DNA of 64,000 nucleotides from assembly GCA_944390275.1 (NCBI GenBank), contig CALXPL010000006.1:28734-92733 (forward strand), written 5' to 3'. Origin of the DNA: an uncultured Alphaproteobacteria bacterium (GTDB lineage Bacteria > Pseudomonadota > Alphaproteobacteria > RF32 > CAG-239). The notes under the pieces are model-generated. The model made no database searches. It was not told where the DNA came from and was given only the letters and a program-made list of their open reading frames with translations. How positions within the stretch are numbered: position 1 is the first letter of the stretch; each line of letters opens with the position of its first letter. A program made the position numbers and the translations under genes. Below are positions 29,142 to 34,049 of the stretch, piece after piece.

Positions 29142-29193
29142 AGTCCGATAATTTCGCAAAATTTGCCAATTTCAAAATCCTCAAAATCGGACT
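29142..29193. repeat. 52-bp imperfect palindrome AGTCCGATAAT...AAAATCGGACT (candidate recombinase attachment/binding site)
   Basis: The outer 8-bp arms are exact reverse complements. A second 52-bp site with the same arms and length lies at 33843..33894. Confidence 0.45.
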
Positions 29194-29735
29194 CGTTCAA
29201 AGTCTTAGAATACATACAAAAAAGCACTGAAAATGTGTCTCTTTATCTACTTACGCATAGGTTGAGTTTTTACCGCTCCAATTTGATGAATAACACGACA
29301 ATACAATTACATCAGATTCTTTTGAATGGTTATAACACATTGTAAATAGGTATTATTATGTTTTAAGCTCTGCAAAATTTTGCAAAAGTTGTATCCCATT
29401 ACTCCATAAACAACCCGTGGATAACCGGATTTGATAAAAGTAATAAAACCTATGCAAAATAAAACGGTTCTATCCATGGGTTAAAAAATGAGATGTTTAA
29501 AATAACTTATTGTCATTGATGTTAAGAGGTGTGTTACTCAAAAAACAGCCATCCATAAGTAAATATAGATAAGGGAAGATTATGTAAGTAACAGAGAAAT
29601 CGGAAAGAGAATTATTTAGTAAATTGAATAGGGTTAAAACTAAACTCTTTAACTGCATTAGTAACATAATATGGCTAAAAAAGCCTTTGTCATCTTTATT
29701 TCTATAATTTGCTATAAATACAAATTTTTTATGTG

Positions 29736-31346
29736 TTATTGTCTTTGTTGTTGATTTAAATTTATATTTATTCTGCTGTTTATGATTGTTTGTTCGGCCT
29801 GTTTTATGCGATTTTGATATCTTTTAATAACTTCAGCAGGTAATTGAGGTAGGTTTTTATCAGAAAGTTTTGCTGCATTAGTAAATCTTTCTCCAGTTTT
29901 ATAGTTAAATGCAACATATTCTCCATTTTCTCTATCTACAACAAATTTTGATATTGGGGTTCCATCTTTTTGTTTTTTTTCAAAAACAAAACAATTTTCA
30001 TGTTCTCCTACTTTTTCTTGTTTAATGGAAATGACGCTATCATTTTCTGTTATTTCAATTCCATTCCGCATTTCTGCTTTTACGAAAGCTTTATTTAGAG
30101 CTGTTCTTTGGTTGTTTTTTATTTGTCTTAATACATCTTCTGGTAAAGGAGCAAAATTCAAATCAGGATTATTGCTATATATTTTTTCCGGCTTTCCTCC
30201 TTGATAAAGATATGTTCCCGTAGATTTATTATATTGCAGACTAAATGTGCATTTTTTATCTTTATCAAAACCTTCTATATTTAACAAATTAGGATTCTTG
30301 GAATCTATTGAGTAATTGGCATTTTCTGTATTTTTTATCTCTATTAAAGATATTTTTGCATCGACAGATTGAGTAAATGGAACTTTTATGCCTTTTTCTA
30401 AAACAGATTGAGTACTTTGTTGTTTATTTTTATTCAAATTAAGATTTATATTTTTTTGTTGTGGATTTGGATTTTTTAAAACTTTCATACTATCCAAAAT
30501 GTCTTTATAAATAGTAAATTCACCAAGACTTAATGGGTGATTCTTTGTCGTGTTATTTAATATATCTGTTAAATTATGTGCCAATCTAGGATATATACCT
30601 TTTGCTTCTTCTATTAAATTTTGAATGTCAGCACGACTTTTTTCTGTAGCATAGTGTAAACCATCTTCTAATTTTTCCCCATCTAAAAGACTATTGCCGT
30701 TAGTTCTTACATATGGTTTTATTAATGAAGAGAGTATTTTTTTTTGTTCCTCTATTCTTTCATCAGAAGTGTAAATAACTATTGTATCTGGCCTTGAATA
30801 TGCTTCTCTTTGTGATTCGGCACATTTATATTGGCAATTATATTCTAAAGCAAATTTATCAAGTTTTTCAAATAAATTAGAATTAGGGTCTACATTTAAG
30901 ATAAAACGATGCAAGTCTTTTTTAGGATTATAGTTCGGAGATGTTTTGTACACCCAGCCTGATGCCACCAAACCATCGCCGAGAGAAATTTTTAAACCAT
31001 TTTCTTTAGCTTTCCAATTTTCAATAAGATTATAATATTCTCTATCCCCCATTTTCTTTTCATTATCAACATTTCGACGATTTCCATACATTCCTCTTGC
31101 CAGAAAAAATAATGAAACTCCCCCATTTTTTCCAGCTTGTTTTTGCAAGTTTTCTTCTATATTTTTTGCAAAATTTTTTTTCCCTTTTTCATCGATATAG
31201 TCAGAAAATAATTCTATTTTTCTTACTAATATTTCTTCTGGAGACAAGTTTAAATTGTTTTTCTTTAAAAGATCATCAAACCTATCCAAATAAGCCTCTA
31301 TTTCCGGGGTGATACCTTTAAATGCGGGGAAATCTTGATAATTCAT
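29736..31346 (-). CDS. large hydrophilic Q/N-rich protein, paralogue of 24921..26474 (effector-like)
   Basis: 536 aa. WVYKTSPNYNPKKDLHRFILNVDPNSNLFEKLDKFALEYNCQYKC...DTIVIYTSD...PYVRTNG...HPLSLGEF aligns with the 517-aa protein. The C-terminus is N/Q/K-rich. Confidence 0.55.
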   Translation of the reverse strand: MNYQDFPAFKGITPEIEAYLDRFDDLLKKNNLNLSPEEILVRKIELFSDYIDEKGKKNFAKNIEENLQKQAGKNGGVSLFFLARGMYGNRRNVDNEKKMGDREYYNLIENWKAKENGLKISLGDGLVASGWVYKTSPNYNPKKDLHRFILNVDPNSNLFEKLDKFALEYNCQYKCAESQREAYSRPDTIVIYTSDERIEEQKKILSSLIKPYVRTNGNSLLDGEKLEDGLHYATEKSRADIQNLIEEAKGIYPRLAHNLTDILNNTTKNHPLSLGEFTIYKDILDSMKVLKNPNPQQKNINLNLNKNKQQSTQSVLEKGIKVPFTQSVDAKISLIEIKNTENANYSIDSKNPNLLNIEGFDKDKKCTFSLQYNKSTGTYLYQGGKPEKIYSNNPDLNFAPLPEDVLRQIKNNQRTALNKAFVKAEMRNGIEITENDSVISIKQEKVGEHENCFVFEKKQKDGTPISKFVVDRENGEYVAFNYKTGERFTNAAKLSDKNLPQLPAEVIKRYQNRIKQAEQTIINSRININLNQQQRQ

Positions 31347-31452
31347 GGCTTTATCCTTATTATTCCATTTGGACTTTTATGATATATGTAATAACATATA
31401 TAATAAAAAAATACAACCCATAAGTTATCATTTAATGTTTTGATATCTGTCA

Positions 31453-32225: not shown

Positions 32226-32259
32226 AACCTCTGTAAATTTCAGCAGAGGTTATTTTTTT
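32226..32259 (+). terminator. rho-independent terminator
   Basis: AACCTCTG-10nt-CAGAGGTT followed by ATTTTTTTT. Confidence 0.65.
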
Positions 32260-32441
32260 AACTTCGTGACGTTAACGACAATAACTTTTTATAACCTCGT
32301 TCCAATTGGGAATTAGGTTAACATTTTGAAATATCAGTAATTTGTTAGTGAAAAAATTGCAAGAATCTGAAAATAAATGCGTACTTTCCCAAAATAACAC
32401 GACATAATAACATTATCGGACTAATTTTGAGGAGTAATATC

Positions 32442-34022
32442 ATGTCTAAAAAGAATAAATATCAAAATATTGCAGATGAAGAATGTAAACAAGCCGTTAT
32501 ATTTGCTCGAGTTTCATCGGAAGAACAAAAGAAAGGAGCTTCCATTGATGCACAACTTAAAACGGTTATTGATTATTGTAACAATCACAAATTTAAGATT
32601 CTAGATAAATTCTCTATTGTTGAAAGTTCAACGCGAGGTGGGCGTTTAAAATTTTATGAAATGCTTGAGTTTGTAAAATCTCAAAAACACAAAACCGCTA
32701 TTGTTGTAAATTGTGTCGATAGATTGCAACGAGGATATAAGGAATGTGTTGAATTAGACGATTTGCGTAAACAAGGCAGAATAGAAATACATTTTTATAA
32801 AGAAGGTTTCTATTTGCATAGAGATAGTAATTCATCTGATATTTTACGTTGGGATATGGGAATTTTATCCGCTAAGATGTATGTAGGTGCTTTAAGAGAC
32901 AATGTTTTACGCAGTCAAGAATATAAAAGAGAAGCAGGACAATGGCAATCTTGCGCTCCGGTCGGTTATTTAAATATATCCAAAACCAAAACGACTCCGG
33001 CAGACATTGTGATTGATGAAGAGAGAGCCCCTAAGGTTAAAAGACTTTTCGAAGAATATGCCAAAGGCGGACGAACCTTGCAAGATATTACCAATCTAGC
33101 CAGAACCTTAGGATTATCTTCAAAAATGTGTCGTGTAAATAAAACAATTAGTCGAGCTCAAGTTCAAAACATACTGAAAAATACTTTTTACATTGGATAT
33201 TTTACGCAAAAAGGCAAAGTTTACAAACATCCTTATCCTTTATTTATAGATAAAGAATTGTTTCAAATTGTCCAAGATACTATGGAAGGAAGAAAACGAG
33301 CACCAAGTAAATTATATTATGGTGATAAACAATATATTTTTACAGGTTTAGTCAGATGTGGTTGTTGTGGTAGTTTAATGACTTGTGAAACTAAAGTAAA
33401 AGACGATAAACATTCTTACAATTATTTAAAATGTAACAAATTACGTTCCAAATGTTCACAAAAACCAATCAATGAAGCAAAAATCTTACAACAGCTTGAA
33501 AAAGAATTGTCATTACCTATTAACATTAGTGACACTATGTTAAAAAATATTAAGTCAGAAGTAAAAAAGCAACTCAAAGCCGAAAATATCAATACAGCCA
33601 ATCTCAAACGAGACATTACCATTAAATTAAATGAGCTTGATGAAGAAGCAAAAAACTTATTCCGTGGCTATATGAGAGGTAAATGCGATGAAAAAATGTA
33701 TAATGAATTAAAAACTGAAATTGAAATGGAAAAAGAAAAACTACAAAAAGATATGGATAGATACCTTGAGATTGATGCTGAAACTGATGAAATACTAGCA
33801 AATATCGCGGAAATAGCTGCAAATGTAGGAAAATTCTTAAAAAGTCCGATTATTTCTGAAAAAAGAGACATTTTGAAATTAATATTATCGGACTGCAAAA
33901 CTGAAGGAAAAAATATAGCGTTTTCAATAGTTAAGCCATTCGATGAACTACTAAAAACGCCTGAAACTGATAAATGGTGCCGCCAGCAAGAATCGGACTT
34001 GCGACCCCGTCATTACCAATGA
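32442..34022 (+). CDS. large serine recombinase (resolvase-domain integrase)
   Basis: AVIFARVSSEEQ carries the catalytic Ser. A resolvase N-domain is followed by a recombinase domain, a zinc ribbon (CGCCGS...CNKLRSKCS) and a long coiled coil. ATG 32442 with GAGGAG upstream is preferred over the track's TTG at 32427. The 3' 48 nt overlap the tRNA-Thr gene. Confidence 0.8.
   Translation: MSKKNKYQNIADEECKQAVIFARVSSEEQKKGASIDAQLKTVIDYCNNHKFKILDKFSIVESSTRGGRLKFYEMLEFVKSQKHKTAIVVNCVDRLQRGYKECVELDDLRKQGRIEIHFYKEGFYLHRDSNSSDILRWDMGILSAKMYVGALRDNVLRSQEYKREAGQWQSCAPVGYLNISKTKTTPADIVIDEERAPKVKRLFEEYAKGGRTLQDITNLARTLGLSSKMCRVNKTISRAQVQNILKNTFYIGYFTQKGKVYKHPYPLFIDKELFQIVQDTMEGRKRAPSKLYYGDKQYIFTGLVRCGCCGSLMTCETKVKDDKHSYNYLKCNKLRSKCSQKPINEAKILQQLEKELSLPINISDTMLKNIKSEVKKQLKAENINTANLKRDITIKLNELDEEAKNLFRGYMRGKCDEKMYNELKTEIEMEKEKLQKDMDRYLEIDAETDEILANIAEIAANVGKFLKSPIISEKRDILKLILSDCKTEGKNIAFSIVKPFDELLKTPETDKWCRQQESDLRPRHYQ
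33843..33894. repeat. 52-bp imperfect palindrome AGTCCGATTAT...TTATCGGACT (second copy; inside the 3' end of the recombinase CDS)
   Basis: Same length and outer arms as 29142..29193. It lies 81 nt from the tRNA 3' end. Confidence 0.45.
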
Positions 34023-34049
34023 CGTGCTCTACCACTGAGCTATGGCGGC
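33975..34049 (-). tRNA. tRNA-Thr (anticodon GGU), CCA encoded
   Basis: The reverse complement folds as a cloverleaf: GCCGCCA-TA-GCTC-AGTGGTA-GAGC-A-CGTCA-TTGGTAA-TGACG-GGGTC-GCAAG-TCCGATT-CTTGC-TGGCGGC-ACCA. It has a 7-bp acceptor stem, and D, anticodon and T stems of 4, 5 and 5 bp. Anticodon loop is U33-GGU-A37. The T-loop is TCCGATT, which is non-canonical at position 55. Confidence 0.85.

Follow-up and report, generated by a model that had tools for sequence, protein, structure and literature searches.

Phage-type large serine integrases (Listeria A118/LI, Bxb1, phiC31 and TP901-1) combine resolvase, recombinase, zinc-ribbon and coiled-coil parts and act on short sites. Relative to attB, the outer motif of attP is shifted 5 bp away from the centre. 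This offset is typical of the sites of large serine recombinases (LSRs). SCCmec and related SCC elements, with their Ccr LSRs, are islands at the 3' end of a conserved housekeeping gene and form tandem composite arrays that include recombinase-less pseudo-elements and cassettes that can be mobilised in trans. The SCC target is rlmH (orfX), not a tRNA gene, and there are usually two recombinases, CcrA and CcrB. In SSV1-type archaeal integrases attP lies inside an element gene, and integration at a tRNA gene alters the product and splits int in two; in the integration-dependent immunity of mycobacteriophages, integration removes a C-terminal tag from the repressor. Extra recombinase-dimer sites govern synapse architecture and directionality at the res sites of small serine resolvases (Tn3, gamma-delta, Sin). 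We know of no accessory sites for large serine integrases, and no description of such sites was found in the literature searched. Mageeney et al. 2020 (PMC7192596) predicted that 14 of 297 large serine integrases use t(m)RNA genes, a use that 'has not been reported previously' and needs proof, and named the small-serine phiRSM group as site-specific element integrases. In the family described here, in contrast, an entire clade of recombinases (37-100% identity) is seen at six tRNA species, with base-precise junctions.

We analysed a 64-kb stretch of DNA, hereafter the window. In our preferred reading, which we hold to be probable, 28582-33980 is an integrative element, carried by uncultured gut Alphaproteobacteria and inserted by an LSR at the tRNA-Thr(GGU) CCA end; it is accompanied by an array of older cassettes, and two 52-bp palindromes are accessory sites of an extended attP. 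The recombinase has the domain set of the phage-type integrases and its sites show the same 5-bp offset, but the target is a tRNA CCA end, attP lies inside the integrase coding region, each att site has the motif in only one half-site, and an extra palindrome lies 88 or 110 bp from the core. As in SCC, an LSR-driven island at a gene 3' end forms a composite array with recombinase-less cassettes; to our knowledge SCC has no recombinase tail swap or accessory palindrome. The SSV1 and mycobacteriophage systems likewise have attP within an element gene whose product is altered by integration, but these are tyrosine recombinases, whereas here a serine recombinase exchanges only its last ~30 residues, and a spare tail 'exon' is present in every element or cassette. 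The likeness to integrons lies in the recombinase beside a primary site, in the array of promoter-poor and recombinase-less cassettes, and in cassette sites that are imperfect palindromes with conserved outer arms and a variable interior. In contrast to integrons, the recombinase is of the serine and not the tyrosine type, the sites would be double-stranded LSR sites and not folded attC hairpins, the palindrome is not the apparent crossover point, and a tRNA gene serves as the primary site. The proposed role of the palindrome resembles that of the extra sites in res, although protein class, spacing and number of sites differ.

Structure and junctions of the element

The element and its ends comprise the following features.

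32442..34022, plus strand: intact LSR gene, 526 aa from the ATG (PF00239, PF07508, PF13408; PHROG integrase match, 2e-63)
33975..34049, minus strand: tRNA-Thr(GGU) (ARAGORN; Rfam tRNA, 70 bits), the host half (B') of the attachment site
33975..33980, plus strand: putative crossover core TGGTGC, whose TGG is a conserved recombinase Trp codon and the complement of the tRNA CCA
28582..28666, plus strand: left junction of the recombinase-bearing element, a decayed displaced tail (P' arm; tblastn, nhmmer, direct repeat D1)
27621..27703, plus strand: older junction with another, further decayed copy of the P' tail (tblastn, E = 0.004; nhmmer, E = 3e-8; direct repeat D1)
28582-33980, 5.4 kb: the proposed integrative element, from the left tail-copy junction to the TGGTGC core

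The recombinase has the Pfam domains Resolvase, Recombinase and Zn_ribbon_recom. An AF2 model of a 96%-identical homologue contains the catalytic, recombinase and zinc-ribbon domains and a long coiled coil, and the family profile matches the catalytic domain of the TP901-1 integrase. No relatives of the recombinase were found in the viral contigs searched. The 3' end of the ORF overlaps the tRNA-Thr by 48 nt, its last 13-14 codons are antisense to the tRNA, and these coordinates agree with the initial annotation. The tRNA-Thr adjoins the recombinase in 27 of 33 genome loci. GC content is 28-31% in the island region and 35-40% in the flanks.

The C-termini of about 40 recombinase homologues diverge directly after KWC and end in a tRNA-antisense tail, in 'R*' or in a conserved native tail of ~30 aa (AILCxYRTxxYDDFKxLxRKI...). 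The native tail is the ending of the free form, or of a recombinase with another cassette downstream, and the tRNA-antisense ending is that of a recombinase beside the tRNA. Because attP lies within the recombinase gene, integration replaces the final ~30 codons with tRNA antisense. In the tail, third-codon positions vary most and 28 of 29 tail copies lack an early in-frame stop, a pattern that indicates selection at the protein level. The suggestion in the initial annotation that the C-terminus is re-made across a junction is thus borne out, at the tRNA junction and not at a palindrome.

We compared about 55 related loci, including same-species contigs and other species. Every informative breakpoint lies at TGGTGC, 80 nt downstream of the intragenic palindrome. 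In the same-species variant L056, identity is 100% to the right of 33973, with unrelated sequence on the other side. L014 and L015 come from one MAG and match at 99% until TGGTGC, where L014 runs on into the tRNA and L015 into a tail. Junctions of recombinase with tRNA and of recombinase with tail among relatives also break there. These breakpoints point to strand exchange at TGGTGC and not in the palindromes, and the geometry suggests TG (33978-33979) as the central dinucleotide. At the left end, the tail copy at 28582 matches the native tail by tblastn (NYRANSYDDFKKIRRKI, E = 3.7e-5) and the tail model by nhmmer (E = 1.9e-9), and contains ATCGGGCT at 28605-28612. The junction at 27621 bounds a 0.96-kb cassette with a 220-aa ORF (27814-28476). 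An LSR integrative module at the tRNA-Thr 3' end, as initially proposed, is therefore supported by the domains and by the junctions at TGGTGC. Relatives, which had been suggested as a source of both an empty tRNA-Thr locus and the precise junctions, yielded the junctions; neither an empty tRNA-Thr site nor a proven circular form was found among the related loci. The circle to be expected would join about 33979 to about 28586.

The probable recognition motif

The 8-mer ATCGGACT occurs eight times in the window against 1.1 expected, a count reached by no shuffle, and six of the eight copies lie within 29142-33999. The tRNA half-site has it in the T-arm (33992-33999), at nt 18-25 from T1 of TGGTGC. 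In the tail half-site it lies at nt 23-30 in 29 intact tail arms, including that of a 51%-identical relative at tRNA-Arg. The distance to the deduced centre is 21 bp in the former and 26 bp in the latter, which is the 5-bp attB/attP offset. From these positions, the 8-mer is most likely the outer (zinc-ribbon-type) recognition motif of the recombinase, and the implied sizes would be 52 bp for attP and 42 bp for attB. At the cores the motif is present only in the right-hand half-sites; the left half-sites have no recognisable motif, which is unusual for LSR sites. A further copy lies before the recombinase gene.

32415..32422, minus strand: single 8-mer, a candidate operator half-site, 20 nt upstream of the recombinase ATG

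This copy and the one at 33992-33999 had been overlooked in the earlier reading of the sequence.

The 52-bp palindromes

33843..33894, plus strand: site 2, intragenic 52-bp palindrome that encodes ...KSPIISEKRDILKLILSD... and ends 80 nt before the core
29142..29193, plus strand: site 1, non-coding 52-bp palindrome of a recombinase-less cassette, beside a fossil junction
29194..29330, plus strand: decayed spacer, core and tail arm after site 1; the core is expected near 29252 and is now unrecognisable

Two 52-bp sites with identical arms and differing interiors had been described, and their pattern was expected to be rare. In the window both points hold: the copies of AGTCCGAT-N36-ATCGGACT at 29142-29193 and 33843-33894 are the only two (0.00 expected, 100 shuffles), and their interiors are unlike. 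Of 31 unique recombinase 3' ends, extracted independently of the arms, 29 have exact site 2 arms. All third-codon positions in the arms (5/5) are invariant, compared with 7.8% of the remaining third positions, and the arm codons CCG, TCG and GAC end in G or C though the island has ~31% GC. Relatives at 37-51% identity, whose targets are tRNA-Met, Gln, Arg, Leu and Ser, have different arms and keep the layout of 52 bp followed by 80 nt. Across six lineages the arms fit their own tRNA with a sum of 39 against a non-cognate mean of 33.5 (1.7% of permutations as good), the T-loops being all alike.

Non-coding palindromes form a family found in L001, L004 (twice), L006, L024, L028 and L050. Intact copies have the order palindrome, 58-nt spacer, TGGTGC and tail arm, with exact arms, an interior conservation of 78% and a spacer that is constant in length. 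Site 1 belongs to this family and is the counterpart of site 2 in a fossil cassette junction. Its spacer is kept up to ...ACAAAAAAGCAC, after which CTACTTACGCATAGG aligns to AAATGGTGCGAGATAC and TACCGCTCC to TATCGGACT; a weak tblastn match lies in the decayed stretch at 29247-29273, and L015 carries the same derived version. Since it adjoins a dead core, site 1 may itself be a relic. Palindromes are also decayed or interrupted in L015, L056, L034 (one mismatch) and L011 (51 bp). At many array junctions the P side carries a terminator hairpin alone, with the palindrome absent, so the palindrome is dispensable for leaving a junction behind.

Given its attP geometry, its fixed distance from the core, the invariance of its synonymous sites and the arms that differ with the target tRNA, site 2 most likely belongs to an extended attP, as an accessory site for recombinase binding. 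We propose that the LSR would insert the element at the CCA end of tRNA-Thr by exchanging strands in TGGTGC, reading ATCGGACT in the right-hand half-sites of the tRNA (attB) and of the tail (attP). Each palindrome would present two motifs arranged exactly as in attP, on the side of the core that lacks a motif, at a fixed and helically phased spacing of 110 or 88 bp from centre to centre. Motif identity and geometry suggest that an additional recombinase dimer binds there, which would give the palindrome an accessory or architectural role, and it may supply P-type partners that control synapsis or directionality.

We consider it unlikely that the palindrome is instead a regulatory operator without a role in recombination, bound by the recombinase or a small backbone protein and controlling recombinase transcription or translation, or antisense read-through into the tRNA. 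The 8-mer upstream of the recombinase, present in 8 of 17 distinct promoter alleles and always at -27 or -29, may indeed be an operator half-site, and the 3' end of the gene holds site 2 shortly before the antisense run into the tRNA begins. However, half of the alleles lack the upstream 8-mer, and the non-coding copies stand a constant 58 nt from the core in recombinase-less cassettes, where there is no recombinase gene to regulate.

Less probable still is binding of the palindrome by another element protein, such as the 61-aa or 89-aa product acting as a directionality factor or Xis-like protein. LSR excision normally requires a directionality factor, and the recombinase is accompanied by orf61 in 22 loci and by orf89 in 18 (tblastn, down to 36-46% identity). 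Against this, both crossover half-sites have the same 8-mer where LSR motifs typically lie, at the 5-bp offset, and the arms change with the target tRNA in distant lineages, which together point to the protein responsible for target recognition.

We give little credence to the palindromes as crossover sites (attL/attR, or two res-like sites) at which recombination would excise or invert the intervening 4.7 kb (29.17 to 33.87 kb). In length and dyad both match a serine-integrase attP, they share one orientation, and in L028 the recombinase gene reaches the left palindrome arm while the interior and downstream spacer are of the non-coding type, so two palindromes have been joined at least once. 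This join falls inside or ahead of the left arm, away from the centre, in a shared stretch of 12 bp. It resembles a deletion through short homology in a precursor such as L050, where a recombinase-less cassette with a non-coding palindrome is inserted between the resident recombinase and the tRNA. None of the about 55 loci has a junction at a palindrome centre. Moreover, both sites are P-type, and P x P recombination is not normal for LSRs; their central dinucleotides, AC and CA, would block productive exchange; and excision would cut the recombinase gene. What stands of the initial annotation of the palindromes as att sites is the attP geometry and a probable recognition motif. The crossover and bracketing role does not stand, nor do the palindromes form the ends of a 4.7-kb module, the left junctions being 28582 and 27621 and not 29.17 kb. 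With all informative breakpoints at TGGTGC, these left junctions and a fossil site 1, a circle joining 29.17 and 33.87 kb is not expected.

Least credible of all is that the palindromes lack a DNA-level function, site 2 arising as a side effect of peptide conservation (KSPI...LSD) and site 1, like the copies related to it, being a decaying relic of a recombinase gene that was deleted: the peptide is conserved, the non-coding modules resemble the recombinase 3' end and may derive from it by deletion, and some copies are decayed, but the arms are invariant at synonymous sites with GC-ending codons in an AT-rich island, arm-matched non-coding copies keep their spacing while interiors vary, and distant relatives keep the 52-bp geometry with different arms.

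Cargo, older cassettes and polymorphism

31453..32217, mixed strands: backbone genes travelling with the recombinase (tblastn)
31453-31722, minus strand: 89-aa ORF, conserved backbone
31734-31862, minus strand: 42-aa ORF, conserved backbone
32032-32217, plus strand: 61-aa ORF, conserved backbone
31977-31985: cargo slot, with inserts of 1.4-3.3 kb in L001, L003, L004, L014, L042, L046 and L053
29736..31346, minus strand: cargo gene for a 536-aa orphan protein
24860..27620, mixed strands: distal variable region, left boundary uncertain
24921-26474, minus strand: 517-aa ORF, distant paralogue of the 536-aa cargo
26599-27483, minus strand: EamA transporter

The 536-, 89-, 42-, 61-, 96- and 220-aa ORFs have no matches in Pfam, PHROG or PADLOC, and phage genes are absent from the element; the description of the genes between the two palindromes as only accessory is fair. 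The 536-aa protein has only 10 homologous clusters, none with a Pfam domain. Its AF2 model (pLDDT 86) has as best Foldseek matches a P. syringae effector (4rsw, E = 9.5e-5) and lanthipeptide-synthetase chains, entries that we take to share a lyase fold, and in the model the N-terminal part resembles a phosphothreonine-lyase-like fold.

In the distal region, 24860-26591 is swapped for an MFS gene in the same-species contigs L042 and L048, and the 517-aa gene has 88% protein identity to a gene inside the island of another species (L028). In L003 a tail junction directly follows an aldose-epimerase gene. The distal region 24860-27620 is probably old island cargo, and older cargo probably reaches back to about 24860.

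Between hosts with flanks of about 70% identity, recombinase modules are 80-98% identical. Tail junctions were found in 18 of 31 related genome loci (L001-L031; at least one each), with two or three in 8 of the 31. Cargo differs within the species; the polymorphism that had been looked for among close relatives is seen at this locus, with an intact recombinase. Older cassettes without a recombinase form a decaying array (junctions 28582 and 27621), with the element at the end next to the tRNA, and the locus is an SCC-like polymorphic cassette array.

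The recombinase and its crossover core

The recombinase ORF runs into the only tRNA gene of the window, and its product is a bona fide large serine recombinase (LSR).

Features of the tRNA-Thr locus
33975-34049, minus strand: tRNA-Thr(GGU), the sole tRNA of the window
32442-34022: recombinase ORF, 526 aa counted from the ATG, with its stop codon 48 nt within the tRNA gene

Pfam assigns the protein an N-terminal resolvase catalytic domain (PF00239, E = 3.1e-14, residues 18-167) together with PF07508 (Recombinase, 1.7e-12) and PF13408 (Zn_ribbon_recom, 5.5e-9). In the AF2 model the zinc ribbon is followed by long helices (364-460), as fits the coiled coil of LSRs; the ARVSSEEQ motif is kept across all homologues, and a PHROG integrase family is matched at 2e-63. 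Searching the PDB with a profile returned catalytic domains only; the RecA repeat matches obtained with the single sequence were judged spurious.

A protein search retrieved 446 homologues. The closest ~40 are collinear through ...KTPE(T/I)(D/N)KWC, after which their C-termini fall into classes: tRNA-Thr antisense (RQQESDLRPRHYQ, or a longer read-through in GC-richer hosts), 'R*', and a native tail with the conserved pattern (A/E)ILCxYRTxxYDDFKxLxRKI.... In its native-tail form the recombinase is 543 aa long, against 526 aa in the tRNA-tail form. The KWC codons occupy 33972-33980, and the TGG at 33975-33977 is the complement of the tRNA CCA. Based on this complementarity and on the divergence after KWC, we place attP within the recombinase gene and the exchange inside TGGTGC (33975-33980), the only stretch that the junction sequences have in common. 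Early in-frame stops are absent from 28 of 29 unique copies of the tail arm, the native C-terminal segment displaced on integration, and third-codon positions are the most variable. The tail is maintained as a coding 'exon', also in the 22 copies with no recombinase 3' end immediately before them.

Two decayed tail copies were found in the window with native tails as tblastn queries, at 28601-28651 (E = 3.7e-5) and 27638-27673 (E = 0.004). They coincide with the region's sole long direct repeat (27623-27703 and 28586-28666), both copies of which begin with (T/C)GGTG, and the tail copies near 28586 and 27623 are the left junctions. In same-species variants and in more than 30 loci, the right junction can be placed to the base. 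On the same-species contig L056, where the tRNA borders recombinase-less modules, the match to the window starts exactly at 33973. One MAG has two contigs with recombinases 99% identical up to TGGTGC, followed by the tRNA in one and by the tail arm in the other.

The initial annotation had proposed that two 52-bp palindromes, 29142-29193 (site 1) and 33843-33894 (site 2), are the attachment sites bracketing a ~4.7-kb module. The coordinates of the palindromes, the recombinase and the tRNA overlap hold, and the pair are the only occurrences of AGTCCGAT-N36-ATCGGACT in 64 kb (0.00 expected). As crossover or bracketing sites, they are contradicted by the junctions, which map to TGGTGC, outside the palindromes. 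A classical att core in the form of a direct repeat of the tRNA 3' half was also rejected: no such repeat occurs in 20-45 kb, because the crossover sits at the CCA end. The same-species loci found via the flanking aldose epimerase and MurA proteins are all occupied, though variable, so that no empty attB was seen among them, and a metagenome scan for the B arm of locus L003 joined directly to the tRNA gave no match. Contigs with a native-tail recombinase (L034, L049, L050) have no terminal overlaps indicative of a circular form, and are arrays or fragments.

The probable recognition motif and the palindromes

The 8-mer of the palindrome arms occurs eight times in the window, against 1.1 expected, with six copies inside 29142-33999, a region more AT-rich than its flanks. 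The two copies outside the island (16060-16067 and 57790-57797) are isolated, about one per window being expected by chance, and the partner arm is absent at both. The annotation had recorded the palindrome arms correctly and missed two further copies. One, at 33992-33999, lies within the tRNA T-arm. The other, at 32415-32422, is a single 8-mer 20 nt 5' of the recombinase ATG; it is present in 8 of 17 promoter variants, as one of two alleles, which suggests an optional autoregulation of the recombinase.

Counted from T1 of TGGTGC, the 8-mer is at nt 18-25 in the tRNA and at nt 23-30 in 29 intact tail arms (the pattern used to collect them itself fixes that spacing), one of which is from a 51%-identical relative at tRNA-Arg. 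In the tail it is the YRT codons, TAT CGG ACT. LSR sites typically measure about 50 bp (attP) and about 40 bp (attB). A hallmark of LSRs, in the A118/LI integrase model, is that the outer motif bound by the zinc ribbon lies 5 bp further out in attP than in attB, and this offset is present in the right-hand half-sites. The distance from the outer edge of a palindrome arm to the centre is 26 bp; applied to the tail arm, it locates the centre of the crossover at T4|G5 in TGGTGC, from which we deduce site sizes of 52 bp (attP) and 42 bp (attB). The left-hand arms carry no 8-mer-like motif in the recombinase-gene version, the cassette version or the sole candidate host B arm (L003), and visual inspection of the P and B arms in six lineages showed no counterpart symmetrical to the 8-mer. 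Each att site thus seems to have one specific half.

The T-loop of the tRNA-Thr(GGU) gene (33975-34049) reads UCCGAUU, with C in place of the nearly universal U (pseudouridine) at position 55. AGTCCGAT is the same in the T-arm of the window and of every related tRNA inspected, including that of L035. This unusual T-loop may be how the recombinase distinguishes tRNA-Thr(GGU) from other tRNAs.

The palindrome arms are an exact copy of this T-loop sequence. Every recombinase 3' end contains site 2, and in an extraction anchored on its flanks the arms are exact in 29 of 31 unique sequences, with variable interiors. None of the five third-codon positions in the arms varies, whereas elsewhere 7.8% of third positions are invariant; the arm codons CCG, TCG and GAC end in G or C, though the island is ~31% GC. 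The layout, a 52-bp palindrome and then 80 nt up to a Trp codon on the CCA, recurs in relatives of 37-51% identity at tRNA-Met, Gln, Arg, Leu and Ser, with other arm sequences (AGTTCAAA/TTTGAACT, AGTTCGTG/CACGAACC, TGTTCGAT/ATCGAACA and AATTCTAA/TTCGAATT). These arms are closer to nt 18-25 of their own tRNA than of others (sum 39 versus a mean of 33.5; equalled in 1.7% of permutations across six lineages). From arm conservation, layout and co-variation with the tRNA, the palindrome is selected as DNA. It carries what is probably the recombinase's recognition motif, in attP geometry and on the motif-less side of the core, and it is not the crossover site.

An exact-arm search recovered a non-coding palindrome family, comprising site 1 and copies in L001, L004 (two), L006, L024, L028 and L050, with interiors 78% conserved among exact-arm copies. 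In all intact non-coding copies, a 58-nt spacer with a GCACC...GGTGC hairpin leads to TGGTGC and then to the tail arm. This module mimics the recombinase 3' end without a recombinase, with a spacer of 58 nt versus 80 nt there; the difference of 22 nt corresponds to two helical turns, giving centre-to-centre distances of 88 versus 110 bp. The spacer 3' of site 1 is conserved to the hairpin only, and the core and tail arm have diverged, in a version common to L015; from this decay, site 1 marks a fossil junction within the present element. Rfam assigns the palindromes, and a GC-rich mini-element described below, to no known RNA family, the tRNA being the only match.

Arrays, polymorphism and cargo

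A scan of species-representative genomes yielded 33 loci, mostly from MAGs of uncultured gut Alphaproteobacteria. The recombinase adjoins tRNA-Thr(GGU) in 27 of them, and the two most distant have tRNA-Ser and tRNA-Trp nearby. Identity to the window is 80-98% across the recombinase modules but ~70% in the host flanks (murA and beyond); thus, the element moves between species. Based on a tail-arm profile, tail copies are present in 18 of 31 related genome loci (L001-L031), with two or three copies in eight. All are on the recombinase strand and left of the recombinase, 0.6-3 kb apart within arrays; these are cassette arrays. In L050, a resident native-tail recombinase is separated from the tRNA by a cassette with a 188-aa ORF and an HNH protein. 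The end of this cassette consists of the 8-mer, a non-coding palindrome, the 58-nt spacer and TGGTGC, to which the tRNA is joined. Cassettes that lack a recombinase thus share this core and land between the resident recombinase and the tRNA. Locus L028, where a recombinase gene is joined to a non-coding palindrome, was considered as proof of exchange between palindromes and rejected, the join being at the left arm and not at the centre; the arrangement is consistent with a short-homology deletion in an array like that of L050.

The polymorphism expected from the annotation is borne out by contigs of the same species, as judged by identical flanking proteins: island content differs among them, and an insertion-free tRNA-Thr locus was not found. 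Their recombinase allele is 91% identical, versus 98% for the rest. Same-species L042 and L048 have an MFS transporter gene in place of segment 24860-26591 and its 517-aa ORF (breakpoints 24859/24860 and 26591/26592). Coinciding right junctions, tail-marked left junctions and polymorphic content, as for an LSR element at a tRNA gene, are all observed. Restriction-modification, NERD or Fic genes fused to recombinase halves were considered as site-specific hybrids and rejected, since the fusion points of the truncated and fused recombinases are scattered, which indicates deletion decay.

The 61-aa and 89-aa ORFs accompany the recombinase across the family, and their products are candidate regulatory or directionality factors. 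LSRs exchange strands at a central overlap of 2 bp and depend on a directionality factor for excision. A cargo slot at 31977-31985, between the 89/42-aa and the 61-aa/recombinase modules, reads ...gctacgatt, insert, tttcctgttttacat...; it is empty here. In contigs of the same species the slot is filled by a 494-aa gene or by a type IIS restriction-modification system, and further inserts of 1.4-3.3 kb occur in relatives. Neither a repeat nor an att-like motif was seen at its edges.

The 536-aa cargo protein (29736-31346) belongs to an orphan family of 10 clusters. Its confident AF2 model (pLDDT 86) has weak matches to 4rsw, an effector of Pseudomonas syringae (E = 9.5e-5), and to chains of class III lanthipeptide synthetases, and we take these to share a phosphothreonine-lyase-like fold; the weak 4rsw match lends the earlier label 'effector-like' some structural support. 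The 517-aa protein is its distant paralogue (26-34% identity) and is 88% identical to an island gene of another species (L028). PADLOC found no defence system in the window cargo. In the wider family (L035-L039, L049, L053), restriction-modification genes dominate the cargo, and a PLD-family protein, a reverse transcriptase and an HNH protein also occur; the tRNA-targeting LSR elements of this wider family look like small defence islands.

A GC-rich non-coding mini-element of ~190-210 nt occurs in L056 (395-620), L001 (1953-2146), L013, L023, L025, L010 and L030, and between recombinase and tRNA in L024 and L011. The L056 copy lies between 19-nt direct repeats of the tRNA-Thr 3' end (TGGTGCCGCCAGCAAGAAT). 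Within the mini-element is a CGGACTTGC...GCAAGTCCG hairpin, and a terminator hairpin closes it ahead of TGGTGC. It may be a miniature element using the same site.

Known systems and a proposed mechanism

A prophage or phage satellite was rejected: PHROG matched the integrase only, and 2.9 million viral contigs held no relatives. With SCC, which pairs Ccr-type LSRs and inserts in rlmH, the single tRNA-targeting LSR here has array behaviour alone in common. SSV1-type integrases and systems of integration-dependent immunity share the gene-spanning attP, and the proposed accessory site recalls resolvase res sites. Integrons are alike in having cassettes and palindromes with variable interiors. However, they use the tyrosine recombinase IntI, attI and attC sites folded as single strands, whereas here the recombinase is a serine enzyme, the palindrome arms are 8 bp and 36 bp apart, and the crossovers fall outside the palindrome.

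The locus is an LSR element at the tRNA-Thr CCA end, with an intragenic attP, a tail swap and a 5-bp motif offset. It has a conserved, co-varying palindrome at fixed spacing, and forms polymorphic arrays that include recombinase-less cassettes. From the motif content, the palindrome is probably bound by the recombinase as an additional dimer, which, 88 or 110 bp off, would assist or gate synapsis. This dimer could, for example, lend P-type partners for the coiled coils to the tRNA junction, where a B-type subunit would otherwise stand alone. Given the seeming lack of specificity in the left arms, this junction may still be a usable target, which would explain array growth beside the tRNA.

A more far-reaching proposal, which we consider rather unlikely, is that this LSR clade is an integron-like cassette platform at tRNA 3' ends. 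With right-hand half-sites alone specific, the integrated tRNA junction would stay attB and every tail junction would stay attP. One recombinase could then add cassettes beside the tRNA and excise cassette blocks without a classical directionality factor; the palindrome would provide the missing P-type subunits or coiled-coil partners, setting direction, and the spare 3' 'exon' of each cassette would restore the native C-terminus of the recombinase.

LSRs are prized in genome engineering because two short sites suffice, with no accessory DNA. The LSR element at the CCA end belongs to a natural clade whose departure from this two-site pattern would widen the rules of site choice and direction control. 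The departures are the tRNA CCA-end target, an attP in the recombinase's own frame with the C-terminus rewritten on integration, apparently half-specific att sites, and a probable accessory palindrome with complete geometry at a constant, helically in-phase distance. According to a 2020 survey, in which 14 of 297 LSRs were predicted at t(m)RNA genes and awaited proof, such use 'has not been reported previously' (PMC7192596), and a large LSR catalogue paper does not mention tRNA. In the open-access literature searched, neither an accessory palindrome nor a tail swap is described for LSRs, an absence that is not proof of novelty. The clade would document tRNA genes as a serine-integrase target class, held to be unreported by the 2020 survey (PMC7192596). 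It also accounts for a hypervariable hotspot in common gut Alphaproteobacteria, one that passes between species with its restriction-modification systems and other cargo.
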